Shown here: one piece after another, positions 37,510 through 52,792 of the stretch
Layout of the letters: each line of letters begins with the position of its first letter
How positions within the stretch are numbered: position 1 is the stretch's first letter
From: Nitrosomonas sp.
GTDB lineage: Bacteria > Pseudomonadota > Gammaproteobacteria > Burkholderiales > Nitrosomonadaceae
NCBI GenBank assembly: GCA_024281995.1
Contig: JAMWZW010000008.1
Coordinates: 29,806-93,805, forward strand
Length of the DNA stretch: 64,000 bases
Reading direction: 5' to 3'
Program-made: the position numbers and the translations under genes
Notes under the pieces: model-generated
What the model was told of the DNA's origin: nothing
Database searches by the model: none
What the model saw: only the letters and a program-made list of their open reading frames with translations

Positions 37510-37524
37510 TGGCACGCGGCTTGC
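37510..37524 (+). promoter_or_regulatory. sigma-54 (RpoN) -24/-12 promoter
   Basis: TGGCACG-CGGC-TTGC, matching TGGCACG-N4-TTGC with exact GG-N10-GC spacing, about 110 nt upstream of the ATG at 37633. Confidence 0.9.
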
Positions 37525-37632: not shown

Positions 37633-38325
37633 ATGTATCAGAGCGAAAATACTTTTGAATTCAATCCGGAAATGAGTGGTTTTGAAGCCGAGCAATATGA
37701 AGGTGAACAGTATGAAGGCGAACAATTTGAGCAATTTGAATATGGCGAAGCGGAGTGGGGGGAAGTATTTAATGAAAGTGAGGTAATGGAACTCACTGCC
37801 GAACTTCTGGAAGTTACCAACGAAGCAGAACTCGACCGTTTTCTGGGTAAATTGATCAAGAAAGCCGGTAGTGCCTTAGGTAAAGTGGTGAAATCCCCCA
37901 TCGGTCAAGCAGTGGGTGGGGTACTCAAGGGCGTCGCCAAAAAAGCATTACCGATTGCTGGTGGTGCGCTGGGTGCTTATTTTGGCGGTCCTCTTGGCGC
38001 CAAGATCGGCAGTGGCTTGGCCTCCGCGGCGGGAAGTGCACTCGGACTTGAACTTGAAGCGCTTAACCAAGAAGATCGCGAATTTGAAGGCGGAAAACAA
38101 TTTGTGCGATTCGCCGCTAATACCGTGAAGAATGCCGTAGCAGCACCACCTGCCGCCAATCCTCGCAGCACCGCGCAAGTGGCTGCTAATAAAGCCGCAC
38201 AAGTCTATGCACCCAATTTATTAGGTTCAGGATCGACATCAACCATGCCATCAGCCATGCCAGGTAAAGGGCGCGGAGGCCGATGGTTCCGGCGTGGCCG
38301 CAACATCATCATTGTCAATTGCTAA
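37633..38325 (+). CDS. charge-segregated glycine-zipper protein 1 (unknown function)
   Basis: ATG at 37633 with GGAGGG RBS; EQYEG repeats, ELTAELLEV..EAELDRFLG, Lys-rich amphipathic and Gly-zipper core, C-terminal GRWFRRG. Confidence 0.85.
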   Translation: MYQSENTFEFNPEMSGFEAEQYEGEQYEGEQFEQFEYGEAEWGEVFNESEVMELTAELLEVTNEAELDRFLGKLIKKAGSALGKVVKSPIGQAVGGVLKGVAKKALPIAGGALGAYFGGPLGAKIGSGLASAAGSALGLELEALNQEDREFEGGKQFVRFAANTVKNAVAAPPAANPRSTAQVAANKAAQVYAPNLLGSGSTSTMPSAMPGKGRGGRWFRRGRNIIIVNC

Positions 38326-38361
38326 GCAGTTTCTATACATATATTTACGAGGAGAACTAAC

Positions 38362-39063
38362 ATGCATGATATTGACCGTACACAACTGGAAAGCAACCCC
38401 GAGCTGGAAAATTATGAACATGAGCAATACGAGTTTGGAGAATACGGCGAATATGGTGAAACCGAATGGGGAGGCGAAACTGGTACTTTTAGCGAAGCGC
38501 AAGCGATGGAATTGGCCGCCGAGTTATTGGAAGTCAGCAGCGAAGAAGAGCTGGACCGGTTCCTGGGCAGTCTTATCAAGAAGGCTGGTCAAGTTGCCGG
38601 GAAGTTTATCAAATCCCCGGTAGGTCAGCAGCTTGGCGGCTTGTTGAAAGGCGCGGCCAAGCAAGCCTTGCCTATGGTGGGTAGTGCCATTGGTGGTTAT
38701 TTTGGCGGTGCGGGCGGTGCCAAAATCGGCAGCCAGGTGGCCTCTACCGCAGGGCGCATTTTTGGTCTGGAGCTGGAAGGACTGAGCCATGAGGATCAGG
38801 AATACGAAGCTGCCAAAAGCTTCGTTCAGTTTGCCGGAACAGCCGCAAAAAATGCAGCACTATCACCGCAGGCAGCCAATCCAAGGGCGGTTGCGCAATC
38901 CGCAGTTGCGGCAGCCGCCCGTCAACTTGCTCCAGGTCTCGTTCGCGGTGCTCCGGCTGCAGCGTTAGTTGCATCGGGCAGCGCGTGCCCTTCCTGCGGA
39001 CGGGGTGCCATGAGCGGCCGCTGGATGCGGCGCGGAAACAAAATCATACTATTTGGAGCTTAG
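38362..39063 (+). CDS. charge-segregated glycine-zipper protein 2 (paralog of protein 1)
   Basis: GGAG RBS; alignable with protein 1 throughout (ELAAELLEVSSEEELDRFLG, GLELEGL..EDQEYE, GRWMRRG). Confidence 0.88.
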   Translation: MHDIDRTQLESNPELENYEHEQYEFGEYGEYGETEWGGETGTFSEAQAMELAAELLEVSSEEELDRFLGSLIKKAGQVAGKFIKSPVGQQLGGLLKGAAKQALPMVGSAIGGYFGGAGGAKIGSQVASTAGRIFGLELEGLSHEDQEYEAAKSFVQFAGTAAKNAALSPQAANPRAVAQSAVAAAARQLAPGLVRGAPAAALVASGSACPSCGRGAMSGRWMRRGNKIILFGA

Positions 39064-39069
39064 CCTATC

Positions 39070-40431
39070 ATGGCTGCCACTTCTTACGCCACATGGATGC
39101 TCGAGCAGGAAGCTCGTGCTTTGCTGACCCGGTTGAAACGCGTCAAGCCTTTCGCTTTGCATGAAACCATGCTGCCAGCGGCATCGTTATTACCGGCAGC
39201 GCAAACCGGCATCGAGCGTTACTTGATGGAAGGGCGGCGAGAATTGAGAGGTATGATTCAACGTTACATTGCCTGGTTACGCGGACCATCCGGGCGTAGA
39301 GCCACGCCCGCCCATGCGCAGCGGCTATTCTCACTGCTGCGATTGAGATTCAATGCGGTACTGACACAATTTGATCTATTTAACGATGCACTCACGCAGC
39401 GCAGCGAAAATGAAATCGGTGTCTGGCTTTCCGGACTTGAAGTGGTGTCGGCTGATGCACTCACTATTCCGGGGCATTACTACGAGGTACCGCCAGTTAT
39501 CTGCTACCTCGATCGTGGTGTCGGCGCAGCGATCCGCCGTGCCAGAACACGATTGCCAGGCGGCGGTGAAAATCCGGTAGCGGTGATTCGTGTTCCGCGG
39601 GAACGTATGGTGGGCAGCGGTATCGCTTCTTCTCTGATCCATGAAGTGGGGCATCAGTCGGCTGCTCTGCTTAACCTGGTGAATTCCTTGCGGCCTGTTT
39701 TGCAGGGTATGCAACGAGGCAGTGGAGCCTATAGCAGTACTTGGGCATTGTGGGAACGGTGGATTTCGGAAATCGTCGCCGATTTTTGGTCTGTTGCCCG
39801 CATTGGCATTGCTTCAACGCTCGGGTTGATGGGCGTCGTTAGCTTGCCGCGCGCTTTTGTATTCCGCTTGAACCGGGATGATCCGCATCCGTCGCCGTGG
39901 ATACGCGTCAAGTTGAGTTGTGCGATCGGGCAAGCGCTTTATCCGCATCCGCAGTGGCAACGCCTGGCTCAATTATGGGAATCCTATTATCCGCTGGATG
40001 GATTGGAGGCCGCGCAACAGCAGAATTATCAGGCATTGCAAGCGACTTTACCTGGTTTTGTAGCGCTGCTGATTAATCACAGACCTGAAAGCCTGCGCGG
40101 GCGCAGCCTGGCTGAAGCCTTGCAGGTGCAAAACCGCCAGCCGCGTCGTCTTCAGGCATTGTTCCTAGCGTGGCGGCAGGAACCAGTGAAAATGTATCGC
40201 GCATCACCAGTACTGGCTTTTGCTGTGATCGGTCAAGCACGTGCCGACGGCCGCATGAGTCCGGAGCAGGAAAGCGCCATACTGGGAAAATTGCTCACCC
40301 ACTGGGCGTTGCGCAGTACCTTGGCAGTGTCCGCGGCCTGCTCAATGCAATCAGAACGGCCGAAGCCTTGGCTCACAAACTACTACCAACAAAATCGTTT
40401 TATTAACTATTCACTCAGGAGAATGACATGA
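39070..40431 (+). CDS. HEXXH (gluzincin-like) metallopeptidase-fold protein
   Basis: LIHEVGHQ followed about 40 aa later by WISEIVADFW (E-x-x-A-D third-ligand pattern); no signal peptide. Confidence 0.7.
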   Translation: MAATSYATWMLEQEARALLTRLKRVKPFALHETMLPAASLLPAAQTGIERYLMEGRRELRGMIQRYIAWLRGPSGRRATPAHAQRLFSLLRLRFNAVLTQFDLFNDALTQRSENEIGVWLSGLEVVSADALTIPGHYYEVPPVICYLDRGVGAAIRRARTRLPGGGENPVAVIRVPRERMVGSGIASSLIHEVGHQSAALLNLVNSLRPVLQGMQRGSGAYSSTWALWERWISEIVADFWSVARIGIASTLGLMGVVSLPRAFVFRLNRDDPHPSPWIRVKLSCAIGQALYPHPQWQRLAQLWESYYPLDGLEAAQQQNYQALQATLPGFVALLINHRPESLRGRSLAEALQVQNRQPRRLQALFLAWRQEPVKMYRASPVLAFAVIGQARADGRMSPEQESAILGKLLTHWALRSTLAVSAACSMQSERPKPWLTNYYQQNRFINYSLRRMT

Positions 40432-42596
40432 GTACAACTAGTCGAAGCCGAAAAGATGAAAAAAAGAAACCGGGAATCCTTAGAGTTAATTTATTCGCTG
40501 AATTTTCAGCTACAACGAGAGACCGAGAATTAAAAGGTGCTATCACCAACGCAGCAGTTATCGTCAAAACAAACATGTTTTCGAATAATAAAATTGTTGC
40601 TCAAGATGTGACTGGACAAGATGGATGGGTAGATATTCCTCTCGAATCGGGGGGGTATCGTATAGAGTTTCCTTCACTTCCCGATCAATGGCAGCCGCAG
40701 TCAGGGCATTTAAGTGTCACGGTTGACGATGCTAAATTTAATGAAACAGGACATATTGTCGAAGCGCGTCAGAGTGGACTGGCTCTGGATATACTTACTA
40801 CGGCAGGCGACGATTTTATGCCCAAGCCCAGCTTGAATATCACGCAAGGTAAAGGAATCTGGATAGTAGTCACTGTACCGAACTATTTGCCATCTGTAAT
40901 TCCCGATACCTCGATAAACAGAGGCTTTTTACAAAAAATTCAAAAATCCGAGCACAGGGATAATGTGAGCTATAAGGCTCAAGTAACAGATGTATCGGGT
41001 AGCGGTCCATTTGGTTTTTTTAGCAGAGTATTGCTTAGCGATGATCGTGATGGCCCAGCCGTTATTATGAACGACGAAGCTGTTATTGAAGAAAGTAAGC
41101 AAATTGTTGGTGGCCAAGTCAATACTACTACCTCATTAACACGTACTGAGACCTCTTTCACTGAAGACACGGCATTCTGGACGGCGATCCGCAATAATAC
41201 GGATGCGCTTTCATTCAATAATTATCTTAGTTTTATGAATTGGATCTTTTGCAACCAGTTACCTAAGAATTTGAGCGGTTTTGAAGATAAACGCTTTGGC
41301 AAAAAAAGAGAGGCCTTTGAAAGCGATGAAATAGGTTTATTGAATAAACGCTTTTTGCCTTTTACTGATTCAGATGCCTATCGTGTGATGAAGGCTGCGA
41401 CTGAGGCATTTGTCATGGTGAACTGTGGGGTGTTGAGCGAGGAATTACAGCCGTTTGACTTGGAGTTAGATAAAGCCTATCTCGATAGGAGAGATTTGCC
41501 GTTTCCACAGAACGGATTGAGTAGTGCTTTTAACGATAATTATCTGGTGGGCGTCGATGGCAATGGTAACGTATTGCCCTATCTCGCGGTTATTCGTCGG
41601 AAGTTACCCGATATCAAGATTAAGCTAACTCCTTTCGAAGAGGCGGCTCGAAGAAGTAGATCCAATGCAGTCGATGCGGACGAATGTTTTGGGCTGCTGC
41701 AAGAGAAACTCGCCAATCCTTGCTTGCTCGAGCTCATCTGGTCGTACTGGCACGAAGAAGGCATGTTGGTGCAAACAACTAACGCCATTACACGGCGGTT
41801 CCAGAATGTGCGTTCATCTGCACGTGATCCACTGGTTAACCTGGAAATGGATCCGCTACGGCCGCTCAATAATGTGCTTTGGGGTTATATCCAGGACGAG
41901 CAACATCGCTTGACCGTCAACCGGCGTAATTACGAGTACGATCACCATTACGGTCTCCATTTGGAAGGCAAAGCGGTGCAAAATTTTCGTCCCGCCGATA
42001 CGCGTTCAAAGTTCCTGGAAGCGTTTCATCATTTATTGCGTTTATGTAGCGTATTTTATAAGCAAGACGATGATACAACAATCAAGGCTGATGCTTTTCC
42101 AGTACTCAACGCCCTCAAGGAAATACACTTGATTCTGTCCCAAGGGGCGCACAATCAATTTGGCGATTTACCATCAACGGCTCGCATCGAAATGTTGATG
42201 CAGCAATGGTTGCTGGCTCGGCCGGAGTTCCGGGAATTGTTGCCGACGCGCATTATGGTGGCTTATCCCGAACCTTGGATGGATCGCGTTGACGCGATGA
42301 AAAAATTGCAAGGCTGGACCGATACCAGCGTATTGCATTTCCGCAACTTGGGCATGTTCGGTGAGCAACTTTTGCTTTCCATCCGTTGGGGTCATTGGAG
42401 CGACGAATTCGAGCCTGTCAAAGCGCTCAATTGGGCGCGGTTTTTCCGTCCGCAGGCTCAGGGCTACATTCATGCCTACCGTGCTGCAACCGGTGTTGAT
42501 CTATCGGTTGATTTGACTGCCAATGTGCCCGTGGATTCGACCTTGCCATCGGTATTGTTGCAAAAGCGCCTGGCAAGTCAGCAACGGGCGATGTGA
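40428..42596 (+). CDS. hypothetical protein (722 aa): beta-rich N-terminus plus helical His/Glu-rich C-terminal core
   Basis: Start overlaps the upstream stop (ATGA); long ORF with no recognised named family. Confidence 0.8.
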   Translation: MSTTSRSRKDEKKKPGILRVNLFAEFSATTRDRELKGAITNAAVIVKTNMFSNNKIVAQDVTGQDGWVDIPLESGGYRIEFPSLPDQWQPQSGHLSVTVDDAKFNETGHIVEARQSGLALDILTTAGDDFMPKPSLNITQGKGIWIVVTVPNYLPSVIPDTSINRGFLQKIQKSEHRDNVSYKAQVTDVSGSGPFGFFSRVLLSDDRDGPAVIMNDEAVIEESKQIVGGQVNTTTSLTRTETSFTEDTAFWTAIRNNTDALSFNNYLSFMNWIFCNQLPKNLSGFEDKRFGKKREAFESDEIGLLNKRFLPFTDSDAYRVMKAATEAFVMVNCGVLSEELQPFDLELDKAYLDRRDLPFPQNGLSSAFNDNYLVGVDGNGNVLPYLAVIRRKLPDIKIKLTPFEEAARRSRSNAVDADECFGLLQEKLANPCLLELIWSYWHEEGMLVQTTNAITRRFQNVRSSARDPLVNLEMDPLRPLNNVLWGYIQDEQHRLTVNRRNYEYDHHYGLHLEGKAVQNFRPADTRSKFLEAFHHLLRLCSVFYKQDDDTTIKADAFPVLNALKEIHLILSQGAHNQFGDLPSTARIEMLMQQWLLARPEFRELLPTRIMVAYPEPWMDRVDAMKKLQGWTDTSVLHFRNLGMFGEQLLLSIRWGHWSDEFEPVKALNWARFFRPQAQGYIHAYRAATGVDLSVDLTANVPVDSTLPSVLLQKRLASQQRAM

Positions 42597-43723
42597 GCTG
42601 CATGGCTATGATCAATTTCACCTCGGCGCTATATCTGGGACTGCATCATCCGAGCCAGTTTTTGCAACCCTGGCAACAACTTACACTGGGGGTGCCGGCT
42701 GCGCTTGAAGAACCGCCCGGGGCTGAGGAGGCGGCGGGAGGATTGGCACAGTTACAAGGGTGCGAGCACGGTGTGTTGTTGCCTTCCACGTTGCATCTAT
42801 TCTGGGATTTATTTGCCATGCTGCGCCAACAACCGGCAGCGTTGTTTCTGGATGAAGGAGCTTATGCGATTGCTCGCTGGGGAGCAGAGCAATTTAGTGC
42901 CAAAGGGGGTGATGTTTACACTTTCCGGCACCACGATCCTGAAGCGCTGCTGGTGCAAATCAAGCGGCATGCGCATCAAAGAAAATATCCCGTGGCAATT
43001 GCCGACGGCTTTTGTCCGGCGTGCGGTCATGCCGCACCAGTCGGAGAATATCTGGAAATTGTGAGACGTTTTGGTGGTTTACTGGTGTTGGATGATACCC
43101 AAGCTTTGGGAATTCTGGGTGAGTCGCCAGCGTTGCACAGTCCTTATGGCAAAGGCGGGGGCGGTATGTTGCGCTGGAGTGGAAACTTTGGACCGGACAT
43201 CGTGGTGGGCTCATCACTGGCAAAAGGTTTCGGCGTGCCGGTGGCGGCTCTTGCGGGCAGCAAAAAACTGGTCAAACGCTTTAAAATGGCCAGTGATACC
43301 CGGGTACATGGCAGTCCGCCGTCGGCGGCTGTTATTCACGCAGCCGCTCATGCGCTGACGGTGAACGAGATCCGAGGCAGTTTGCTGCGGCACAGATTGG
43401 CTCAGCGGGTTGTTCAATTTCGCAAAGGACTGGAAGCCATCGGCTGGGATTCCATCGGCGGCTGGTTTCCCGTTCAAACCTTGCGGGGAATCGTTGGAAA
43501 CGCCGCGGTCAAAATGCACCAATACCTTTCCCGGAACGGTATTCAGACAGTATTGTCACGGCCCCGCGATAACGGCGAGGCACACCTGAGTTTTTTAATT
43601 ACAGCGCGGCATAGCGCTGATGAAATTGATCATTGCATCGACATACTGAGCACATTGACGCATAGCATCGACAAGGCTGCAAATCGCAGCGGCAAGTCAG
43701 CGTATTCGGGCTTCATAAAATGA
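42593..43723 (+). CDS. divergent PLP-dependent alpha-oxoamine synthase-like (BioF/KBL/SPT fold) protein
   Basis: INFTSALYLGL, ADGF, LDDTQALG and SSLAKGFG (Schiff-base Lys); GTGA overlap with the upstream stop. Confidence 0.8.
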   Translation: MSCMAMINFTSALYLGLHHPSQFLQPWQQLTLGVPAALEEPPGAEEAAGGLAQLQGCEHGVLLPSTLHLFWDLFAMLRQQPAALFLDEGAYAIARWGAEQFSAKGGDVYTFRHHDPEALLVQIKRHAHQRKYPVAIADGFCPACGHAAPVGEYLEIVRRFGGLLVLDDTQALGILGESPALHSPYGKGGGGMLRWSGNFGPDIVVGSSLAKGFGVPVAALAGSKKLVKRFKMASDTRVHGSPPSAAVIHAAAHALTVNEIRGSLLRHRLAQRVVQFRKGLEAIGWDSIGGWFPVQTLRGIVGNAAVKMHQYLSRNGIQTVLSRPRDNGEAHLSFLITARHSADEIDHCIDILSTLTHSIDKAANRSGKSAYSGFIK

Positions 43724-43746: not shown

Positions 43747-46128
43747 ATGAATCAAGAACTGAACTTTGAAACCATACCGTTAGAACTCGCTCCTGAAATT
43801 ACGGGAGAAATGTTCGAGGTGGAAGGCGAGCGAGGAATCCGCCGCTCATTTGCAGGATCTAGAAACCGCAGTTTCCGGCCTGGCGTTCGTCCCGGTTTGA
43901 GACCAAAAGGAACCAAACGGCCGCCATTCTCGCGAACAAGACCTTTCGTAAAGGGGTCGCGGCGGCCGTTTGGAAGTGCTGTCTATGAACCTTATCCGAT
44001 TGCGAGCGAGCCCTATTCCAGTGAACCGGAACCATCCGGCTCAGAACGCACCCGCTGGGTACAGGATTGCTTGAATCAAACGGCGGGAACGCAACTTCCG
44101 GTGACTGGAATCATGGGGCGGGAGACACGCAGCGCCGTGCGGAATTTTCAGCGGCAGCAAGGGTTAAGAGCAAGCGGCATTGTCGGGCCGGATACCGAAG
44201 ATGCGTTGAAGGCGGCATGCACCGGACAAAATGCCGGGGAAAATTCTGAGCTTGAATCGTATATCAAAGAACCTGGTTTTATCGCGTGGTTAACCTGGCA
44301 ACCCAGTAATGAAAATCCGAAGTTATTTACCTGGGATGAAATCCAGAAGCGCGCGCGTGATCGGATTCACGGTGATGTCGGTGTTTATGTTGTTGTTCTA
44401 TTTGAACGAAGAACCATTGGCGGAAAAACCAAAAAAATAATCACCAAAATCCTGAAGGTAGGAAAGGCGATTGATGATTCCTTCAGGCAAAGACTAGAAC
44501 GCGAAGATCACCAAAAAATACGAGCAAAGTATCCGGGAAAAGTTGGATACTATCTGGCCAAAATACAAGCAAGCGGCGCATGTCCCATTCGTGGTTGCGG
44601 TACTGCAATAGAGCATTTGGTAACACGCACCTTGATTCGGGCGCGAAAAATGCTGCCTGAGCATCAGCGGCCTATTGTTCCTATCAAGGCACTCGAGCAA
44701 ATTCAGGTGGCCAACATTCTGCCGAAGCCTTTGGCAAAAAATCTTGGAAAAGCCTATGCTGCAGCCGGCCCCATGGATGTCCGGAAACAAAGAATAGGGC
44801 CAGTGGCAGCTCCAGCCAGCGGCTCCGGTAATTTGATACTGCCGAAGGATGCAATATGGGAACTGGAGTACCCCTTCAGCGAAGCCGAAGAACTGGAGCT
44901 CGCCGCCGAATTATTGGCCATTTCCAACGAAGAAGAGCTGGATCTATTTCTTGGCAAAATGTTCAAGGGAATCGGTAGAGGATTGAAGAAATTTGGCCGT
45001 TTCGTCGGCAAGAAAGTGCTACCCGCATTGGGTAAAGGTTTGAAGGCTATCGGCAAGGTTGCATTGCCGATTGTTGGCAAAGCGCTCGGATCTTTTATTC
45101 CCATACCGGGCGTTGGCACGGCTATCGGAGGGGCTATCGGAACAGCTGTCAGCAACGCGTTGGAGCTTGAATTCAGCGGCTTGCCTGCTGAAGAGGCAGA
45201 GCTGGAAATGGCGCGGCGTTTTGTGCGCATTGCCGCGACAGCAGCCAGACAAGCGGCTTTGGCCAATCCGCATGCCAATCCCGAAGCTATCGCCAATGCT
45301 GCTTTGATAGCAGCGGCTAAAATGCAAGTGCCGAATCTTCCTGTAGCGATTCAAAGAAATTCGGAACTAAACGGTGCGATTAATAATGAATGGCAGACCA
45401 ATAGCATTCAACCCGAACGATCCGATCAGGAAGCGTTTCTGGGCGATGTATGGAACTCCATTAGCACCGGAGCTCGTAAGCTCTCCAGTGGCGTTGCCAA
45501 TATGCTGACAGATTGTGCGCCCATTGAAGATCGCACAAGTTTTACGCCTAGAGATAAGCGCAAAGGGAAGCCGCGCGATATGAGTAAAGTATATGCGCTG
45601 GTGTTGCATCAGACTGCCGGCAATCAAAGGAATACGCCACCCAATCGGTATGACAGTGTCACTGCGCATTTTGTAATCAAGCCAAATGGACAAATACTGC
45701 AATTGCATCCATTGGCAGCTTACCTTAATGCCTCAAATGGGTTTAATGCTGGCAGTGTAGCCGTTGAATTTGCAGGTAATTATCCTGATGTAAAAGGTAA
45801 ACGGTACGTTTATCCGAATGGCGCATCGCCTCAAGGCATTCTGACTGCCGAACAGATCAAGGCTGGGCGCTGTTTAGTGCGTTACCTTGTTAAAAATATG
45901 GGCCTTACCCATATTGTGGCTCATCGGCAATCCAGTGCAACCCGTGCAAACGATCCGGGTCCGGATATTTGGTATCACGTAGGTCAATGGGCAATCAATA
46001 ATCTAGGTTTACGGGATGGTGGGCCAAGTTTTAAGGTTGGTAGCGGCAATCCCATACCGGATATTTGGCGGACGTGGGGAGAAACCAGACCACAACAGCC
46101 TGAACTTGGCGAGGAAATCTTTGCTTAG
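43747..46128 (+). CDS. multidomain protein: PG-binding domain + GIY-YIG-like region + third copy of the charge-segregated domain + N-acetylmuramoyl-L-alanine amidase
   Basis: WVQDCLN...FQRQQGL..SGIVGPDT (PG_binding_1); ELAAELLAISNEEELDLFLG; LVLHQT, TAHFVI, SVAVEF, IVAHRQ, DPG (Amidase_2). Confidence 0.8.
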   Translation: MNQELNFETIPLELAPEITGEMFEVEGERGIRRSFAGSRNRSFRPGVRPGLRPKGTKRPPFSRTRPFVKGSRRPFGSAVYEPYPIASEPYSSEPEPSGSERTRWVQDCLNQTAGTQLPVTGIMGRETRSAVRNFQRQQGLRASGIVGPDTEDALKAACTGQNAGENSELESYIKEPGFIAWLTWQPSNENPKLFTWDEIQKRARDRIHGDVGVYVVVLFERRTIGGKTKKIITKILKVGKAIDDSFRQRLEREDHQKIRAKYPGKVGYYLAKIQASGACPIRGCGTAIEHLVTRTLIRARKMLPEHQRPIVPIKALEQIQVANILPKPLAKNLGKAYAAAGPMDVRKQRIGPVAAPASGSGNLILPKDAIWELEYPFSEAEELELAAELLAISNEEELDLFLGKMFKGIGRGLKKFGRFVGKKVLPALGKGLKAIGKVALPIVGKALGSFIPIPGVGTAIGGAIGTAVSNALELEFSGLPAEEAELEMARRFVRIAATAARQAALANPHANPEAIANAALIAAAKMQVPNLPVAIQRNSELNGAINNEWQTNSIQPERSDQEAFLGDVWNSISTGARKLSSGVANMLTDCAPIEDRTSFTPRDKRKGKPRDMSKVYALVLHQTAGNQRNTPPNRYDSVTAHFVIKPNGQILQLHPLAAYLNASNGFNAGSVAVEFAGNYPDVKGKRYVYPNGASPQGILTAEQIKAGRCLVRYLVKNMGLTHIVAHRQSSATRANDPGPDIWYHVGQWAINNLGLRDGGPSFKVGSGNPIPDIWRTWGETRPQQPELGEEIFA

Positions 46129-46219: not shown

Positions 46220-46798
46220 ATGACTACCATCTCAACCCAATCAGCGGAGGGTTCACTTGTAATCACGTCAAATGATGGTGAGCTTCCTGCTGCATCCGCC
46301 GTACTGTTGTTGAAAGCCACAAACCCGGAATATAACCAGCCTGTATTACATATCAAACAGGCAGGTGAACGTGGAAGCGCGGCTTCGATCCGGATCGACG
46401 ACCCGAATCCTGATATCGAGTTTGTCGAGACTAGCCCGGATAATCCTAATCCCAATGATCATGGCGCCGGGAAGTACGAGATTGCCGTTCAGTCGGATCG
46501 GCTTCAAATTAATGGCCGCAAAGCTGATGGTAGCCGCTTCGAAACCATCGTCGTGTTTCAGCGGGCGGGAGTAAATTGCGATCCTCTGCGGCCAGAAAGC
46601 GGGGGAAATATCGGTTTTGGTTTTAAAGAAGCCAAAGAGTTTAAAGATTTTGGAGGCGGACAAGGCGTCATCGCGATTGTCAATGTTTGTGTCGCTCCGA
46701 CGAAAAATCTCGCCGGTGCCGGAATTTTATATGTCGAGGACGGGGCGCTCAAATATATGGGATCGAAGGGAACAATAACTATTATTGCGCCAGCATGA
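46220..46798 (+). CDS. hypothetical beta-rich protein with a phage tail-fibre-like C-terminal motif
   Basis: AGGAG RBS; C-terminus GGGQGVIAI...GILYVEDGALKYMGSKGTITIIAPA. Confidence 0.65.
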   Translation: MTTISTQSAEGSLVITSNDGELPAASAVLLLKATNPEYNQPVLHIKQAGERGSAASIRIDDPNPDIEFVETSPDNPNPNDHGAGKYEIAVQSDRLQINGRKADGSRFETIVVFQRAGVNCDPLRPESGGNIGFGFKEAKEFKDFGGGQGVIAIVNVCVAPTKNLAGAGILYVEDGALKYMGSKGTITIIAPA

Positions 46799-46816
46799 AC
46801 GAGAGGAGAGTAAGAA

Positions 46817-48343
46817 ATGTCGACAAATTACGTTTGGCCGCTCAGCAACAGTACGACATCCGATGAGATGAACACTTCATTCGGGCCGCGCATCAATACC
46901 AATCGCTGGGATTTCCACGATGGCATCGATCTGCCGGCCAGTATTGGAACCAAGGTTTATGCTATGCGCGGGGGAATAGTGCATTTCGCCGGGTTACCTG
47001 GAGACCCTGGGGCGGGCAGGTATGATTCCCGTCATGTCATCCTCGAGGTTGATGACCCCAATGACGGATGGATGTATCTTGCTTACCTGCATCTTGACAG
47101 TATTGATGGGGCCGTGATCTCCGGTGCGAATATTGTGCAGGGGCAGGAAATCGGCACAGTCGGTAAGCACGAAGCGACTTATCCACATTTGCACATCGAG
47201 TTTCTCCAGGGAACGCCCGATGCCGATGCGCAAACCAGTCGTCATCCATTGAAGTATCTCCCCTATTCCAACAAGGCGAACTTTACCGCACCGCTAGCCG
47301 ACCGTTTCAATCGCTTCGGGCCACACATGGCAGCGCGTCTGCTATTCGGCGCCAGCAATAGGTCGGAAGGTGATTTGCTGAGGATTGAAGTCGACCTTCT
47401 CAGGGGTACCGGCGTGCTTGCTACCCGCGTCGTTGATTTTCACGATGAAACGACGATCAATAAGAAAAGAGGTAACAGCGACAAGAAAATCTTCAAAAAC
47501 GACATGGGCGTGGAAGGTTACCAAAAATCCCGCATGAACGATCCGGAACGTACACGTGCCGACCTTCACTACGGTATCCTGGTGCGCAACTTACCGGATG
47601 AGTGCGATACCCTCGTGGCTCGTGTTTTCGATATCGGCGGCAGCATGGTCAGCAGTGCGCCAATTCCCGTTCCGGATCAGAATGCAACGAATGAGCTTGT
47701 CTGTTTCGAGGGCGGCGCGATGCCACCCACAGGCTGGGAGCTTGTGACGAGCACGACAGGCAGCGGAACAACGGTGACAAATGATGCCTCTGCTGCATAC
47801 TCCGGTACGCACGGCATGCTCTGCATCGATGACTCCACTACAGAGACGAGAACACAACGGGCAGGTATCGAGTTTACGCTACCACCCGGTCGCTTCGAAT
47901 GGATTGCCGAAGGCTGGTTTAATCCGAATGTGCTGGATTTGGCACCGGATCAATCAATCTTGCTGCTGCATCTCCTGCATGGCGAAAATCTGAGCGTAGC
48001 GGCACGCATTCGCAACGAAGACGGTCAACTGCTCGCAGGAATCGTGGCGAAGGATAGCGACGGCGACTTGAGAGGTTCGAATAGTTCGGTAGTTTCCGGT
48101 GCCATCATTCCCGGCTTCTGGCGCAAGTGGAGACTGCATCTGCTACGAATCGGCACGCGGGAAACGACTGCTGTGCTTTATCTGGACAAAGACGGCGAAT
48201 TGGCAGAGCATGACCGCCTTAACTGGGATTCGACGACCTTTGAACCTCAAGTTTTGCGCGCTGGAATAGGCCGGTCGGAGGCGGGAGGGAAAGCTACTGT
48301 ACTGGTCGATGAACTGCGGATAAGCGAATATCCCATTCCGTAG
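46817..48343 (+). CDS. M23 family metallopeptidase with C-terminal beta-sandwich domain(s)
   Basis: FHDGIDL (HxxxD), YLHL, YPHLHIE (HxH); no signal peptide. Confidence 0.85.
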   Translation: MSTNYVWPLSNSTTSDEMNTSFGPRINTNRWDFHDGIDLPASIGTKVYAMRGGIVHFAGLPGDPGAGRYDSRHVILEVDDPNDGWMYLAYLHLDSIDGAVISGANIVQGQEIGTVGKHEATYPHLHIEFLQGTPDADAQTSRHPLKYLPYSNKANFTAPLADRFNRFGPHMAARLLFGASNRSEGDLLRIEVDLLRGTGVLATRVVDFHDETTINKKRGNSDKKIFKNDMGVEGYQKSRMNDPERTRADLHYGILVRNLPDECDTLVARVFDIGGSMVSSAPIPVPDQNATNELVCFEGGAMPPTGWELVTSTTGSGTTVTNDASAAYSGTHGMLCIDDSTTETRTQRAGIEFTLPPGRFEWIAEGWFNPNVLDLAPDQSILLLHLLHGENLSVAARIRNEDGQLLAGIVAKDSDGDLRGSNSSVVSGAIIPGFWRKWRLHLLRIGTRETTAVLYLDKDGELAEHDRLNWDSTTFEPQVLRAGIGRSEAGGKATVLVDELRISEYPIP

Positions 48344-48348
48344 CCGTC

Positions 48349-49839
48349 ATGTTTGCCACTGCGGATGTGCCAATGAGATTTGCGAATCTATCGTTTGATC
48401 CAACCGCTTTGGCTAGCGCGTACAGCCGGAAACATCATGGTCGCTTTGTGGCGGAGCTGGGGGAGTTTATTCGCTTCCCGAGTATCAGTGCGCAGCCGCA
48501 GCATAAAGGCGATACGCAGCGTTGCGCGGCATGGTTGACTGATCATTTGAAAAAAATTGGCATGGAACGAGTAGCTGTGATTCCTACCAGCGGTCATCCC
48601 GTAGTTTATGCTGAGCACTGCCATGCAGCGGGAAAACCGATGGTGCTGATTTACGGCCACTATGATGTGCAACCGGCTGAGCCGCTGAGTGAATGGCGCT
48701 CGGCGCCGTTCGAGCCGGTGATCCGTGGAGACGATCTTTATGGCAGAGGCGCTTCGGATGATAAGGGGCAGCTTTTTACACATGTCAAGGCATTGGAAGC
48801 ATTGCTTCGAGGCGGTCAGGGGTTGCCCGTTAACATCAAGTGCCTGTTTGAGGGCGAAGAGGAAATAGGCAGCCCCAGTTTGCCTGATTTCATGATTGCC
48901 AACCGGCAGTTACTTGCTGCGGATTGTGCCGTGATATCGGATACGCAAATCCCGGCTGCCGGTCAACCTGCCATCACTTATGCCTTGCGAGGTTCAATCA
49001 ATTTTGAGCTGGAGATCACCGGGCAAAAGCGGGAACTACACTCGGGCGTGCTGGGCGGTGCCATTCATAATCCGCTGCAAGCGCTGTGTGAAATGATTGC
49101 GCAACTACATGATCAGGCTGGACGTATAGCTATTCCTGGTTTTTATGACCGTGTGCGGAGATGGGATATGAAGGAGCGTGCCTACATGAAAAGGGTTGGA
49201 CCGTCTGATGAAAAAATATTACAAGATGCTGGAGCGGCAATGGGTTGGGGGGAACGGAATTATTCATTGTATGAGCGTACTACAATCCGCCCTACTATCA
49301 CGGTAACCGCCATGCATGGCGGATATCAGGGTAGCGGTGTTAAAGCGGCTATCCCGACACACGCTGTGGCCAAACTGAACTTCCGTCTGGTACCAGACCA
49401 GGATCCGCAGGAAATTGATCGGTTATTCCGGGAATATGTCGAACAGATTACGCCTCCGGGTCTGCGGTTACGAGTTCGTACTTTTGCATCATCCCGGCCT
49501 GTACTGATAGGCCGCAGCCATCCTGCAGTAATGGCTGCGGCGCACGCCTATCGTCAGGGATTCGGGACAGCACCGGTATTTTTGCGCAATGGCGGCACGA
49601 TTCCGGTAGTTGGTCTGATTCAGGAAATTTTGCATCTGCCTGTTGTGTTGATGGGATTCGGTTTGCCAGATGACAGGATTCACGGATCGAATGAAAAATT
49701 TCATTTACCCAATTTTTTCAATGGCATTGAGACCAGCATCCGGTTTCTGACAGCAATGGGTCAGAGTCAGCATGCCAGTCTTGTCAGGCGGGATAACAGT
49801 CAGCAGATTCGTAACACAGGAACGTTTTGGGGGCCATGA
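48349..49839 (+). CDS. M20 family dipeptidase
   Basis: YGHYDVQP, GRGASDDKG, EGEEEIGS, IHGSNEK. Confidence 0.92.
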   Translation: MFATADVPMRFANLSFDPTALASAYSRKHHGRFVAELGEFIRFPSISAQPQHKGDTQRCAAWLTDHLKKIGMERVAVIPTSGHPVVYAEHCHAAGKPMVLIYGHYDVQPAEPLSEWRSAPFEPVIRGDDLYGRGASDDKGQLFTHVKALEALLRGGQGLPVNIKCLFEGEEEIGSPSLPDFMIANRQLLAADCAVISDTQIPAAGQPAITYALRGSINFELEITGQKRELHSGVLGGAIHNPLQALCEMIAQLHDQAGRIAIPGFYDRVRRWDMKERAYMKRVGPSDEKILQDAGAAMGWGERNYSLYERTTIRPTITVTAMHGGYQGSGVKAAIPTHAVAKLNFRLVPDQDPQEIDRLFREYVEQITPPGLRLRVRTFASSRPVLIGRSHPAVMAAAHAYRQGFGTAPVFLRNGGTIPVVGLIQEILHLPVVLMGFGLPDDRIHGSNEKFHLPNFFNGIETSIRFLTAMGQSQHASLVRRDNSQQIRNTGTFWGP

Positions 49840-50630
49840 TGATCATTGATTGCCACTGTCATGCCGGAAGCGGCGATGGGTTTACCGGACCCTGGGATAC
49901 GCGGGCGCCATTAGAGGATTATCTGCGCCGTGCCACTGCGGCAGGAATTCAGCGCAGTGTTTTATTTGCCGCATTTCATTCGGATTACGCTGCTGCCAAT
50001 AAAGAAGTGGCGAAAATTGTAGCTAGCCGGCCGGACAGGTTTTATGGATTTGCATTTGTGCATGCGGCCAGAGACCGCGGGCGGGTGCATAAATTGATCG
50101 AAACCGCTGTCAGACAATATGGATTTGCTGGGATCAAAGTGCATCGCCATGATGCGCCGATTACCCGGGAAATCTGTGATGCGGCGAGGGCTTTCGCTTT
50201 GCCGGTACTTTACGATGTGGTGGGAGAAGTATCGGTTTGTGAGTTGCTGGCGCAAGAATACCCGGATGTCAACTTCATTATTCCCCATTTAGGCAGTTTT
50301 GCCGACGATTGGCGTGCACAATTAGGTCTCATTGATCATTTGGTTCGTCATCCGAATATTTATGCGGATACCGCTGGTGTGCGGCGTTTCGATTTGCTGG
50401 AACAAGCGGTGAAACGCGCCGGAGCGGGCAAGATTTTGTTTGGTTCGGATGGGCCATGGCTTCATCCAGGCATTGAATTGGCAAAGATCAAGGCATTACG
50501 CCTTTCACCACAGCAAGAAAAATTGATTTTGGGAACTAATTTGCAGAAATTAATCCATTCTGCGCGACAGTATCGGCCATCCGCTTTATCCGGAAGGCAC
50601 AACACGGCGCCATTCGCTTTTTCCGAATAA
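49836..50630 (+). CDS. amidohydrolase family (Amidohydro_2) protein
   Basis: IDCHCH, GIKVH, IPHLG, ILFGSDGP; the ATG at 49836 overlaps the M20 stop (ATGA). Confidence 0.9.
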   Translation: MMIIDCHCHAGSGDGFTGPWDTRAPLEDYLRRATAAGIQRSVLFAAFHSDYAAANKEVAKIVASRPDRFYGFAFVHAARDRGRVHKLIETAVRQYGFAGIKVHRHDAPITREICDAARAFALPVLYDVVGEVSVCELLAQEYPDVNFIIPHLGSFADDWRAQLGLIDHLVRHPNIYADTAGVRRFDLLEQAVKRAGAGKILFGSDGPWLHPGIELAKIKALRLSPQQEKLILGTNLQKLIHSARQYRPSALSGRHNTAPFAFSE

Positions 50631-50655: not shown

Positions 50656-52053
50656 TCAATACTCGCTATTTTCCTGGCGTTGCGCTGCCCGGCGCAACTG
50701 TAAGGCACGGTCGGTTACGCCGAGACGTTGCGCGGCGCGTTGTAAATTGCCGTTTGCTTCGTCGACCGCGATACGAATGGCGGTTTCTTCGGTGTCTTTG
50801 CTGATAGTTTTGAGTCCCATGCCGCGGTTCAGCGCGATGCGGATTGCCCGCTCAAAACTCATGTCGCGCCATTCTTTCCAATCTTCAGATAAAACCGGCC
50901 GTTCATCCGGCGGAATACAGCCAACAGTAATAGGGCCTTCACCCGCATAGCGGCACAACATCCGCGCGATTACCTGCTTGAGGTCGCGTACATTGCCCGG
51001 GTATTGCCTGCGTAACAGATATTCTTGCACAGGCTTATCAATGGTGGGCACATTGTGGTTCGTGCAGTTTTTTTTTAGGAAATGATTGGCTAGAGGCAAA
51101 ATGTCTTCAGATCGTTCGCGCAGAGGTGGTAAGCGGCATATATAGCTGGCAATTCGGTAATAGAGATCGGCACGGAATTCGCCGCGTTGAACTTGTGCCA
51201 TGAGGTCGCGATTGGTGGCGCAAATTAATCGGAATGAGGTGCGTTGCCAGGCATTGCCGCCGACACGTTTGTAAGTTTGCTCTTGAATGACCCGTAAAAG
51301 CTGAGTTTGCATGGTCAAGGATAATTCGCCCACTTCGTCCAGAAAAAGCGTGCCGCCGTTTGCGAGCGCGAATACACCATCCCGTGAAGATGCAGCACCT
51401 GTAAATGCCCCCCGTTCATGACCGAAAAATTCACTGCCCGATAATTCCGGCACAATAGTCGTGCAATCCAGAATGACAAGCTCGCCCTTATCGGTGCGAT
51501 TGTCGAGCGAGTGTATGAGATTGGCCAGTAATTCCTTTCCTGTTCCGCTTTCGCCGAGAATTAATACCGATACGTTGGTAAAGCGCGCGACTTCGATCAC
51601 TTGGCGTAATATGGTTTGCAGTGTTTGGCTTGTACCAACCAATGCATTTTGAACAAGCGAAGAATTGAGTAACCGATTGATGGCTTCCCAGCGGCGCAGG
51701 CGGGCGGTGATTTCATGAATGATCAAATTATCTTTTGTGCAAACCAGTACATCAGACGCGCCCGCTTCCATTAATTGCCAGATGGCTTCTCCTGAAATCG
51801 CTTCGTGACAGCAGGCAAGGACTTGTATTTGACCGTTGTGGCTAAGTTCGCATAACTGTTCGCAGAGTTCCGGGGTTACTTTGTTGCTAAAGACGATACC
51901 GGAGTGACTGCAGGGAACGCGATAATCTTGTACTTTGATGCCCTGCTGGGTCAAGAGGTCGATGAATTTACAAATAGTTTTTTCCGAGTACTCTCCGACG
52001 CCGCGAATCCAGACAGTGGTAGGTTCAGATATATCATTAAAGAAAGTATCCAT
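50656..52053 (-). CDS. sigma-54-dependent transcriptional activator (bEBP) with degenerate receiver-like N-domain
   Basis: GESGTGKE, FFGHERGAFTGA, LFLDEVGE, FRADLYYRI and a Fis-type HTH; the ATG at 52053 is preferred (TTG at 52065 is an alternative). Confidence 0.93.
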   Translation of the reverse strand: MDTFFNDISEPTTVWIRGVGEYSEKTICKFIDLLTQQGIKVQDYRVPCSHSGIVFSNKVTPELCEQLCELSHNGQIQVLACCHEAISGEAIWQLMEAGASDVLVCTKDNLIIHEITARLRRWEAINRLLNSSLVQNALVGTSQTLQTILRQVIEVARFTNVSVLILGESGTGKELLANLIHSLDNRTDKGELVILDCTTIVPELSGSEFFGHERGAFTGAASSRDGVFALANGGTLFLDEVGELSLTMQTQLLRVIQEQTYKRVGGNAWQRTSFRLICATNRDLMAQVQRGEFRADLYYRIASYICRLPPLRERSEDILPLANHFLKKNCTNHNVPTIDKPVQEYLLRRQYPGNVRDLKQVIARMLCRYAGEGPITVGCIPPDERPVLSEDWKEWRDMSFERAIRIALNRGMGLKTISKDTEETAIRIAVDEANGNLQRAAQRLGVTDRALQLRRAAQRQENSEY

Positions 52054-52792
52054 AGTATTTAGCAACGAACTGATTGAATTACATCCACGAAGAATCCGGA
52101 AGGGCTCTTCTCATGTTTGATAATTGCTTGCAGTCAGTGTCGCTATACTTGGATTTTTTGATCAGCCGAATTACTTCTTATTAGTATTCAGCAGGTTGTT
52201 ATTGAAGTGTTGTTCAAGCAATTATTTTTTCATTGCATGGCGGTTAATTTCCATGCCTGCAATTTCATTCTAAAGTAAATTACCTTAATCTTGAATAAGA
52301 TTTATGTATTCTTTTAATTACTTCATGATTTCTATGATAGATATATTGGTTAATCCGGATTCTCACTAAGTAAGCAGCACTGATTGAATCTTACTTCGGC
52401 GCTCAATAGGAGGTGGTTTGAGCGCGTACGTTGCTATCTTATAAACTTAATGAAAGTCCGGTTTTAATCTGAATTGGCAACAAATCCCTATACTTGTGCT
52501 AGCGATATTTCCATTCATTGATAATAAAGTTATCACCGAATTGTTTAATTTGAAGTGAGATTAATCACATGTCCTGCAATTTTATGGCATCATCGTTAAA
52601 CAGTTGAAATTTGGACTATTAGAAAATCTATTACCAGTCAAAGTATTGTGGCGATCTGAAGTGGTTGTTCTTACATTTCATCTGATTCTTCTCATATTTG
52701 CATTGACCTGATATGGCTTATTGCGTTATTTTTACCCATTTTTATAATAGAGCCTTTGATGGGTTACAGTTTTTTATTGGTTGGCGATTTTT

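Follow-up and report, generated by a model that had tools for sequence, protein, structure and literature searches.

What is the role of a pair of small proteins that join a strongly acidic first part to a purely basic, glycine-rich core, and whose genes head a row of cell-wall enzymes devoid of export signals? The question is raised by a stretch of 64,000 nucleotides (nt) from Nitrosomonas sp. (assembly GCA_024281995.1, contig JAMWZW010000008.1, positions 29,806 to 93,805), hereafter the window, in whose coordinates all positions are given. At 37633-39063 it encodes two tandem paralogs, which we call GZ1 and GZ2. A preliminary description of this pair proposed that an acidic piece masks a cationic amphipathic one within the same chain. 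Our analysis indicates that GZ1 and GZ2 are best explained as putative conserved small subunits of a horizontally spread cassette, apparently gated by sigma-54 and its enhancer-binding protein (EBP), which also encodes wall- and membrane-attacking enzymes without signal peptides.

Segregation and balance of charge in the GZ proteins

GZ1 (230 amino acids, aa) starts with the ATG at 37633, preceded at 8 nt by a GGAGG, and stops at 38325; its homologues begin MYESEN. Our recount gave figures and coordinates identical to those of the preliminary description, namely 21 Glu, one Asp and no Lys or Arg in aa 1-68, followed in aa 69-139 (nt 37837-38049, RFLGKLIKK...SALGL) by 10 Lys/Arg, no acidic residue and 17 Gly. 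The same arrangement is found in GZ2 (38362-39063), with 21 Asp/Glu and one Lys/Arg in the 65 aa of its N-part and 9 Lys/Arg, no Asp/Glu and 17 Gly in its 71-aa core, and again in a copy fused into a 793-aa protein of the same cassette (aa 371-529, nt 44857-45333), in which a 73-aa core with 12 Lys/Arg, no Asp/Glu and 16 Gly is preceded by 33 aa with 12 Asp/Glu. All three cores are bounded by ELD-x-FLG and L-ELE, as had been claimed, and these three are the only GZ copies in the source genome. The full partition of GZ1 was reproduced in 0 of 100,000 shuffles of the protein. The cationic helices of the core are strongly amphipathic (hydrophobic moment of 0.63 for aa 67-90 of GZ1 and up to 0.84 in the fused copy), in agreement with the character first ascribed to them, and the glycine zipper is an eight-link chain of small residues at i,i+4, running without a break from G110 to G138 of GZ1.

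This pattern is a property of the family and has been kept in the homologues, a point on which the masking idea depended. In a set of 177 single-domain homologues, which share 44-96% identity with GZ1, 125 have no acidic residue in the core and 159 no more than one, while basic residues of the N-part number one or none in 143. The core with its cationic and zipper segments is of fixed length, and the variation of the N-terminal tail comes in part from a 15-nt tandem repeat, which in GZ1 encodes the EQYEG unit (37683-37724). For 99 homologues, non-redundant at 80%, which also provided the segment identities of Table 1, the net negative charge of the N-part increases with the net positive charge of the remainder (Spearman 0.70), and the relationship survives phylogenetically independent contrasts (r=0.65, p=2e-13; same sign in 71 vs 25). 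All GZ proteins have a negative net charge (-1 to -26, median -6). The acidic part thus appears to neutralise the cationic part, and since the co-variation persists after the contrasts and every protein is net negative, the charge balance itself must have been selected. This compensation is the strongest support for the masking idea of the preliminary description.

The acidic and cationic segments also share one predicted fold. In the AlphaFold2 model of GZ1 (84 sequences; mean pLDDT 65, pTM 0.54), one bundle contains both the acidic helix and the cationic ones; its confident helices (pLDDT 80-90) span residues 48-59, 64-81, 90-105, 146-170 and 177-192. No structure was modelled in the monomer for the tail (1-42) or the zipper (108-138). 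The C-terminal cap, in which G216, R217, W218, R220, G222 and I225 are invariant in the alignment of GZ homologues, forms a beta-hairpin at 217-228. A Foldseek search of this model against PDB and BFVD gave nothing below E 0.5. The unit found in fused proteins corresponds to profile positions 34-193, thus including both the acidic helix and the C-terminal helices.

A conserved cassette with cargo lacking export signals

We compared 81 cassette loci drawn from Proteobacteria, Nitrospirota, Acidobacteriota, Chloroflexota and Myxococcota. The order of the genes does not vary: one to three GZ genes, a gene for a HEXXH protein, one for a protein corresponding to the 722-aa protein of the window, one for a pyridoxal phosphate (PLP) enzyme, variable cargo, Amidohydro_2 and an EBP. 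The HEXXH protein is 56-83% identical across phyla. In the window, stop and start codons overlap between the HEXXH and 722-aa genes and between the 722-aa and PLP genes. In 35 of 74 related loci, a sigma-54 promoter motif of the strict form TGGCAY-N5-TTGC occurs no more than 400 nt 5' of the leading GZ gene, where 0.002 would be expected per interval of this length.

The variable region between the PLP gene and Amidohydro_2 encodes PG_binding_1, Amidase_2, Peptidase_M74, OmpA, PLDc and Ntox16 domains, with a weak match to Glucosaminidase. No signal peptide was found on any of this cargo, nor a transmembrane-grade hydrophobic segment in any cassette protein, and the variable regions of 65 loci contained no signal-peptide, membrane, transporter or immunity-like open reading frame (ORF). 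GZ is thus the one membrane-like component of a cassette whose proteins are all without transmembrane segments and signal peptides. GZ1 (MYQSENTFEF) and GZ2 (MHDIDRTQLE) themselves start without a hydrophobic N-region or signal peptide and reach a maximal Kyte-Doolittle 19-residue average of 1.09 and 1.07, respectively. VipB (sheath of T6SS, the type VI secretion system), Phage_sheath_1 (contractile sheath) and CagE_TrbE_VirB (VirB4) are all absent from the source genome, which is 97.6% complete, and therefore no known injector is available. Dependence on a T6SS, an extracellular contractile injection system or a type IV secretion system was thus ruled out in this genome. In many proteins, cell-wall enzymes included, the GZ domain is fused to the cargo. 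One Nitrospira protein (P0290) unites a GZ domain with PG_binding_1 and Ntox16 (36.3 bits, cut-off 25).

Almost all of the cargo encoded in the variable region starts with M-x(2-6)-hydrophobic-x-F-E-x-x-P-F, as in MNQEFSFETIPFE, MKSQIDFAIEPFAFE, MRQSLIFRPEPFEF and MKNPYYFEVEPFEIY (window 43747-43790 and loci L004, L011-L030, L047, L054 and L078), usually followed by an Arg/Pro-rich tract. A strict regular expression recovers the motif in 32 of 101 variable ORFs vs 1 of 399 flank ORFs; these frequencies are lower bounds, as ORF calling in loci of high G+C was crude (stretches between stops, cut back to the first Met). GZ1 (TFEFNPEM) and GZ2 (QLESNPEL) have a weaker version, and the motif is a candidate recognition or targeting tag.

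A self-masked membrane-breaching subunit?

What is shown of GZ is its composition, its conservation, its charge co-variation and its predicted fold; the sequence of unmasking and membrane attack set out below is inferred. Our leading reading, put forward tentatively and at somewhat less than an even chance, is that GZ may be the subunit that breaches the membrane, neutralised within its own chain, in an undescribed cassette for toxin release or lysis. A more ambitious version, which we hold to be rather doubtful, would make GZ the membrane-breaching part of an unrecognised, self-contained and phylum-hopping machine for protein release or delivery, triggered by sigma-54 and the EBP and bringing its own rpoN in actinomycetes. 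That GZ would be the membrane-active part is the most economical explanation of a masked cationic bundle with a zipper, encoded by the gene that comes first in the cassette and is repeated most, of wall-directed cargo without export signals and of the fusion of GZ to that cargo. The charge masking of a membrane-active module, as first proposed, draws support from the charge co-variation, the amphipathic helices, the zipper, the wall-enzyme fusions and the want of any other membrane candidate. Control by sigma-54, together with the rpoN gene that accompanies the cassette of Amycolatopsis (see below), fits a payload that must stay silent. Glycine zippers permeabilise membranes for effector translocation in Tde1 (PMC10240207), and CdzC and CdzD, paired small glycine-zipper proteins, kill bacteria (PMC5380434).

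GZ would be made as a soluble, net-negative helical bundle in which the acidic helix and the acidic/aromatic tail electrostatically mask the cationic helices and the eight-link zipper. Once the cassette is switched on, the mask would be displaced, perhaps by the translationally coupled HEXXH protein or by contact with an anionic membrane. The freed cationic helices could then bind the cytoplasmic membrane, and packing of the glycine zippers would produce an oligomeric lesion giving the peptidoglycan-binding hydrolases, phospholipase D and Ntox16 cargo, some of it with its own GZ domain, access to the wall. The outcome might be lysis of the producer with release of the cargo, or entry into a neighbouring cell. 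GZ could work in release much as a holin does, serve the cargo as a translocation module, or do both.

Several observations speak against such a role. The zipper is too rich in Gly to score as transmembrane (Kyte-Doolittle 19-residue average 1.09), the model of GZ1 is a soluble bundle, of moderate confidence only (pLDDT 65, pTM 0.54), and no sequence or fold match to any pore former was found in Pfam, PDB or BFVD. A fixed protein partner, for instance the HEXXH or the 722-aa protein, would account just as well for the very strong conservation of the core. In the 65 loci the cargo has no immunity-like, signal-peptide or membrane ORF beside it, which is unusual for interbacterial toxins, and the PLP enzyme, M20 and Amidohydro_2 are left without a role.

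If the membrane-breaching role is correct, the cassette would represent a new route of protein release or of bacterial killing, and GZ a natural case of a membrane-active module that neutralises itself and has its charge balance maintained by selection. Wall hydrolases naturally joined to a cationic amphipathic module might provide a new class of carriers for bacteriolytic enzymes, and the cassette could serve as a new means to recognise conflict islands in environmental bacteria, nitrifiers and methanotrophs among them.

Alternative explanations

The main rival, in itself unlikely, is that GZ is a soluble adaptor or assembly subunit. Its bundle, its F-E-x-x-P-F-like tag and its GRWxRRG hairpin would dock on the HEXXH or 722-aa protein, cargo bearing a GZ domain would be recruited by co-assembly with free GZ1 and GZ2, and the zipper would serve for helix packing between proteins, in a manner likened to that of the small helical partners of LXG toxins or of the Tap and Eag adaptors of T6SS effectors. 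The predicted soluble monomeric bundle and a hydrophobicity under the transmembrane threshold are what one would expect of such a protein, as are the extreme conservation of GZ, HEXXH and the 722-aa core and their one-to-one co-occurrence, the N-terminal motif, tag-like and common to the cargo, the recurrence of the cap motif at the N-terminus of other variable-region proteins, and the age and stability of position-specific paralog lineages. An adaptor would, however, leave unexplained how wall enzymes without signals cross the membrane, the cassette having no membrane-like protein, and it offers no reason for the selected charge compensation or for strongly cationic amphipathic helices. We give a small chance to the idea, also raised in the preliminary description, that GZ is the scaffold of charge-driven condensates or filaments, in which acidic/aromatic tails and linkers (EFE/EYE repeats) would pair with Arg/Pro tracts and cationic cores, concentrating the cargo in a body within the cytoplasm before release. 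Strong block patterning of charge, a GZ tail that is a repeat-expandable disordered region, acidic/aromatic repeats that return at N-termini as well as from one cargo domain to the next, and tracts rich in Arg/Pro after the cargo N-termini would all suit it, but the charges are balanced within each GZ molecule, which is net negative, and the core is an ordered, near-invariant domain, not a low-complexity one.

The part of the preliminary description that fared badly is the release of the active module by proteolysis. GZ would then be an antimicrobial pro-peptide, cut by a HEXXH protease between ELD and RFLG and between L and ELE to free a 71-residue cationic killer peptide, which we regard as quite improbable. 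Its composition does resemble that of precursors joining an acidic pro-piece to a cationic peptide, the HEXXH gene directly follows GZ2, and the cationic helices of one homologue match the insect peptide Moricin below threshold (E 6e-4, 20 bits vs a cut-off of 27.6). GZ nevertheless has no signal peptide, dibasic site or exporter; the junction between the presumed pro-piece and the core of GZ1 is ELD-R-F, with a single Arg, and the first proposed site falls within a single continuous predicted helix (aa 64-81, pLDDT 82-90). The acidic helix (60% mean identity) is as conserved as the core (57-58%), is kept in every fused copy and belongs with the C-terminal helices to the same transferable domain (profile 34-193), and a conserved core with a varying tail is the opposite of what peptide precursors show. 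Least probable of all, and by our estimate very much so, is that GZ is the substrate of a modification pathway, its Gly-rich segment being modified by the HEXXH, 722-aa and PLP proteins to yield the active product. Three orphan proteins, highly conserved and enzyme-like, whose genes invariably come after those of GZ and overlap by their stop and start codons, might point that way, but no recognisable enzyme family of ribosomally synthesised and post-translationally modified peptides is present, the Amycolatopsis cassette does without the PLP gene, and a hypervariable Ig-like N-terminus such as that of the 722-aa protein would be unusual for a tailoring enzyme.

Comparison with known systems

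One of the nearest known counterparts is Tde1, a T6SS DNase effector of Agrobacterium tumefaciens, which also has consecutive GxxxG motifs in a soluble protein and whose zipper permeabilises the cytoplasmic membrane for the enzyme (PMC10240207). Within the producing cell the zipper of Tde1 is kept from doing damage by Tap1, an adaptor encoded apart from it (PMC10240207), whereas GZ carries its own acidic mask. Tde1 is moreover delivered by a T6SS, a system absent from the genome of the window, and GZ is free-standing as well as fused and has no detectable homology to it. CdzC and CdzD of Caulobacter crescentus are, like GZ1 and GZ2, adjacent small paralogs with extended glycine zippers, and they act on the membranes of other bacteria (PMC5380434). 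As described, they differ in having a dedicated type I exporter and a membrane immunity protein, neither of which was found in the GZ cassette; GZ is also larger, with acidic masks and with HEXXH, 722-aa and PLP partners.

Precursors of antimicrobial peptides, of dermaseptin or defensin type, have a signal peptide, a conserved pro-region, dibasic processing sites and a hypervariable mature peptide. Their acidic pro-pieces balance a cationic segment of the same chain, as in GZ, which by contrast lacks signal peptide and dibasic site and in which the cationic core is the conserved part (57-58%, tail 36%). In holin/endolysin release and type 10 secretion, peptidoglycan hydrolases without signals need a small membrane-lesion protein encoded nearby, under tight gating. 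Holins are small and have true transmembrane helices, unlike GZ, a net-negative protein of 230 aa that has none and whose conserved cassette is much larger. Polymorphic toxin systems, the subject of a 2012 study by Zhang et al. in which Ntox16 was reportedly defined, share with the GZ cassette a constant module combined with swappable enzymatic domains (some of them, Ntox16 included, fused to GZ) and a patchy, horizontal spread; they differ in that no known trafficking domain (Pfam), secretion system or adjacent immunity gene was found for GZ. Tape-measure proteins of siphophages that have M23 or lysozyme domains contain Gly-rich membrane-inserting segments, and GZ resembles them in combining a Gly/Ala/Lys-rich segment with wall hydrolase domains. 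GZ1 and the 793-aa protein have weak profile matches to the tape-measure family PHROG 167 (E 6e-4 and 2e-5), for which composition alone may account, and neither a tblastn search of GZ1 against 50,697 phage records nor the viral fold search of BFVD found anything.

Organisation of the locus

The features of the cassette are listed in Table 1.

Table 1. Features of the GZ cassette in the window. Occurrence refers to the 81 loci; identity is the mean pairwise identity of the segment among the 99 homologues.
Feature	Position	Strand	Evidence or occurrence	Identity
Sigma-54 promoter TGGCACGCGGCTTGC, 123 nt 5' of GZ1 start	37510..37524	+	consensus	
GZ1, first-position paralog, C-terminus ...IIIVNC, 230 aa	37633..38325	+	ORF, homologue search, position-specific lineage	
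GZ1 acidic/aromatic disordered tail, aa 1-45, with TFEFNPEM motif	37633..37767	+	pLDDT 37-46; length 0-54	36%
GZ1 conserved acidic helix SEVMELTAELLEVTNEAELD, aa 46-68	37768..37836	+	helices 48-59 and 64-81, pLDDT 74-90; kept in all fused copies	60%
GZ1 two cationic amphipathic helices, aa 69-106	37837..37950	+	hydrophobic moment 0.63; helices 64-81 and 90-105	57%
GZ1 glycine zipper, aa 107-139	37951..38049	+	near-invariant columns; monomer pLDDT 34-48	58%
GZ1 acidic patch ELEALNQEDREFEG, then two helices, aa 140-193	38050..38211	+	helices 146-170 and 177-192, pLDDT 83-89	65% (acidic patch, aa 140-153)
GZ1 basic C-terminal cap GRWFRRGRNIIIVNC, predicted beta-hairpin, aa 214-230	38272..38322	+	strands 217-221 and 224-228	57%
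GZ2, paralog beside the HEXXH gene, C-terminus ...IILFGA, 233 aa	38362..39063	+	type in every cassette; separate tree lineage	
HEXXH protein, 453 aa, starts 6 nt past the GZ2 stop	39070..40431	+	80/81 loci	
722-aa protein	40428..42596	+	76/81 loci; hypervariable N-terminal pair of predicted beta-sandwich domains, conserved helical C-terminal ~500 aa	
BioF-like PLP enzyme	42593..43723	+	73/81 loci; alpha-oxoamine synthase family, well below family cut-offs	
793-aa cargo: NFETIPLE motif, Arg/Pro-rich tract, PG_binding_1, middle domain, GZ domain, Amidase_2	43747..46128	+		
Third (fused) GZ domain, without C-terminal cap	44857..45333	+	profile match E 2e-36; clade with downstream copies	
192-aa protein and signal-less M23 peptidase (508 aa)	46220..48343	+	strain-specific insert within the variable region	
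M20 dipeptidase and Amidohydro_2, operon end	48349..50630	+	Amidohydro_2 in 46/81 loci (flank-length limited)	
Sigma-54 enhancer-binding protein, convergent, AAA+ and helix-turn-helix (HTH)	50656..52065	-	41/81 loci (flank-length limited)	

The two GZ genes of the window represent distinct types. Counted 5' of the HEXXH gene in 77 loci, GZ genes number two in 58, one in 14 and three in 4. The first protein ends in N[C/A/V] and the one adjacent to HEXXH in G[A/V], single copies being of the second type; of the two, GZ2 is the one common to all cassettes. A tree of 179 GZ domains sets the downstream and fused copies apart in one clade (support 98), and the positional labels require 3-7 changes vs 33-58 in shuffles; the tandem pair is therefore old, with a separate lineage for each position. 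Free-standing downstream copies (L001:16515-17189, L022:14400-15086, L038:16340-17053 and L054:17796-18560) start with MHxxxCxCxxCQ, a Cys-rich, zinc-knuckle-like segment that is not present in GZ1 or GZ2.

The HEXXH protein matched nothing in Pfam or PDB in single-protein and profile sequence searches, and PDB searches with profiles of the 722-aa family gave nothing usable. In a Foldseek search of the model of the 722-aa protein, the helical core was unmatched, and the N-terminal domains matched only Ig-like, pilin or transthyretin-like folds. Its first ~225 residues (window 40428-41100) are hypervariable even among Nitrosomonas strains whose GZ1 is 91% identical; such a hypervariable N-terminus joined to a conserved C-terminus is a pattern typical of specificity or recognition domains. 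The first 135 residues of the EBP have no Pfam match, the RtcR/PspF-like models of PADLOC covering only its AAA+ and HTH domains. We discarded the reading of the cassette as a defence system: PADLOC matched only these domains of the EBP, and a patchy distribution was the sole indication in its favour. No phage genes were seen around the cassette.

Distribution and horizontal transfer

A search of 5.8 billion proteins returned 1,985 homologues of GZ1, the closest coming from named Nitrosomonas and all the named ones being annotated as hypothetical. A profile search of 1.84 billion cluster representatives puts the family at no fewer than 2,375 clusters (50% identity), in many of which two to four copies stand in tandem; it occurs in at least six phyla, and no described family or fold fits any of the four core proteins of the cassette. 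Searched against Pfam-A with hmmscan up to E 10, GZ1 matched only Orbi_VP5 (E 0.21) and no glycine-zipper or bacteriocin family, those considered being Gly-zipper_Omp, Gly-zipper_YMGG, Gly-zipper_OmpA, Rick_17kDa_Anti and Bacteriocin_IIc. Neither GZ1 nor GZ2 could be assigned to a Pfam family or matched NCBIfam, PADLOC or PDB sequences, and our literature searches found no paper on the family or its cassette. Two labels attached to GZ homologues were dismissed: DUF697 (JGI), carried by some of them, which Pfam does not reproduce, and TRI4_N (Pfam), a matter of sub-threshold matches to the acidic/aromatic repeats.

Within the taxonomic family of the window, GZ proteins are present in only 16 of 121 genomes, and GZ1 is 57-77% identical to proteins of Methylococcales, Nitrospira and Acidobacteriota; the G+C content of the cassette region is 5-8 points above that of its flanks. 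The cassette therefore has the behaviour of an accessory element that moves horizontally. It also occurs in plasmid records of Rhizobium, Ensifer and Paraburkholderia, whose annotation was not usable. In Nitrospira, a Y1-type transposase gene lies directly 5' of it (L001:9246-9674, L002:1717-2145).

The cassette is found in Proteobacteria, Nitrospirota, Acidobacteriota, Chloroflexota, Myxococcota and Actinobacteria. In Amycolatopsis solani (L085:8596-16775), rpoN (Sigma54_CBD, Sigma54_DBD) is followed, in this order, by genes for a 569-aa double-GZ protein, the HEXXH protein, the 722-aa core, Amidohydro_2 and the EBP, and the matches to the window proteins reach E 5e-144 for HEXXH and E 4e-146 for the 722-aa core. 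There is no PLP gene, and a DUF2272/Phage_lysozyme2 protein adjoins. Sigma-54 is generally regarded as missing from Actinobacteria, and the cassette would explain the presence of its gene in an actinomycete. The Amycolatopsis GZ protein ends in an Arg/Tyr/Gly-rich tail, like the N-termini of acidobacterial cargo.

Variation in the cargo

In acidobacterial cargo (L061, L068, L079, L082 and L084), Arg/Gly/Tyr/Trp-rich N-termini (MAYSNYYGRRW..., MSYWHGGSGHYHGHYGRFGRYGRP...) replace the F-E-x-x-P-F motif. GRWFRRGxxIVL, the motif of the GZ cap, is found just after F-S-F near the N-terminus of unrelated variable-region proteins of Acidobacteriota (L068:18202-19218, L082:17160-18113), and the cap therefore behaves as a separate portable tag. 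Acidic/aromatic linkers, such as GEFEFEFE, EYEYEDEYEEEGEFEGEGEGE and GELFEGELFEGELFEGE, stand between the domains of multi-domain cargo (L054, L035, L057, L070 and L078); they resemble the GZ tail and could be sites of cleavage or of interaction.

One locus, from a metagenome (L003, ENA contig_121949), has all cassette genes split into 2-4 ORFs and two GZ genes fused, owing to errors of long-read assembly or else to decay of the cassette. In the window, the M23 peptidase and the 192-aa protein are both without the N-terminal cargo motif; they are found among the 81 loci only in the closest relative of this strain (L008); in the other close Nitrosomonas loci, M20 comes directly after the amidase gene.

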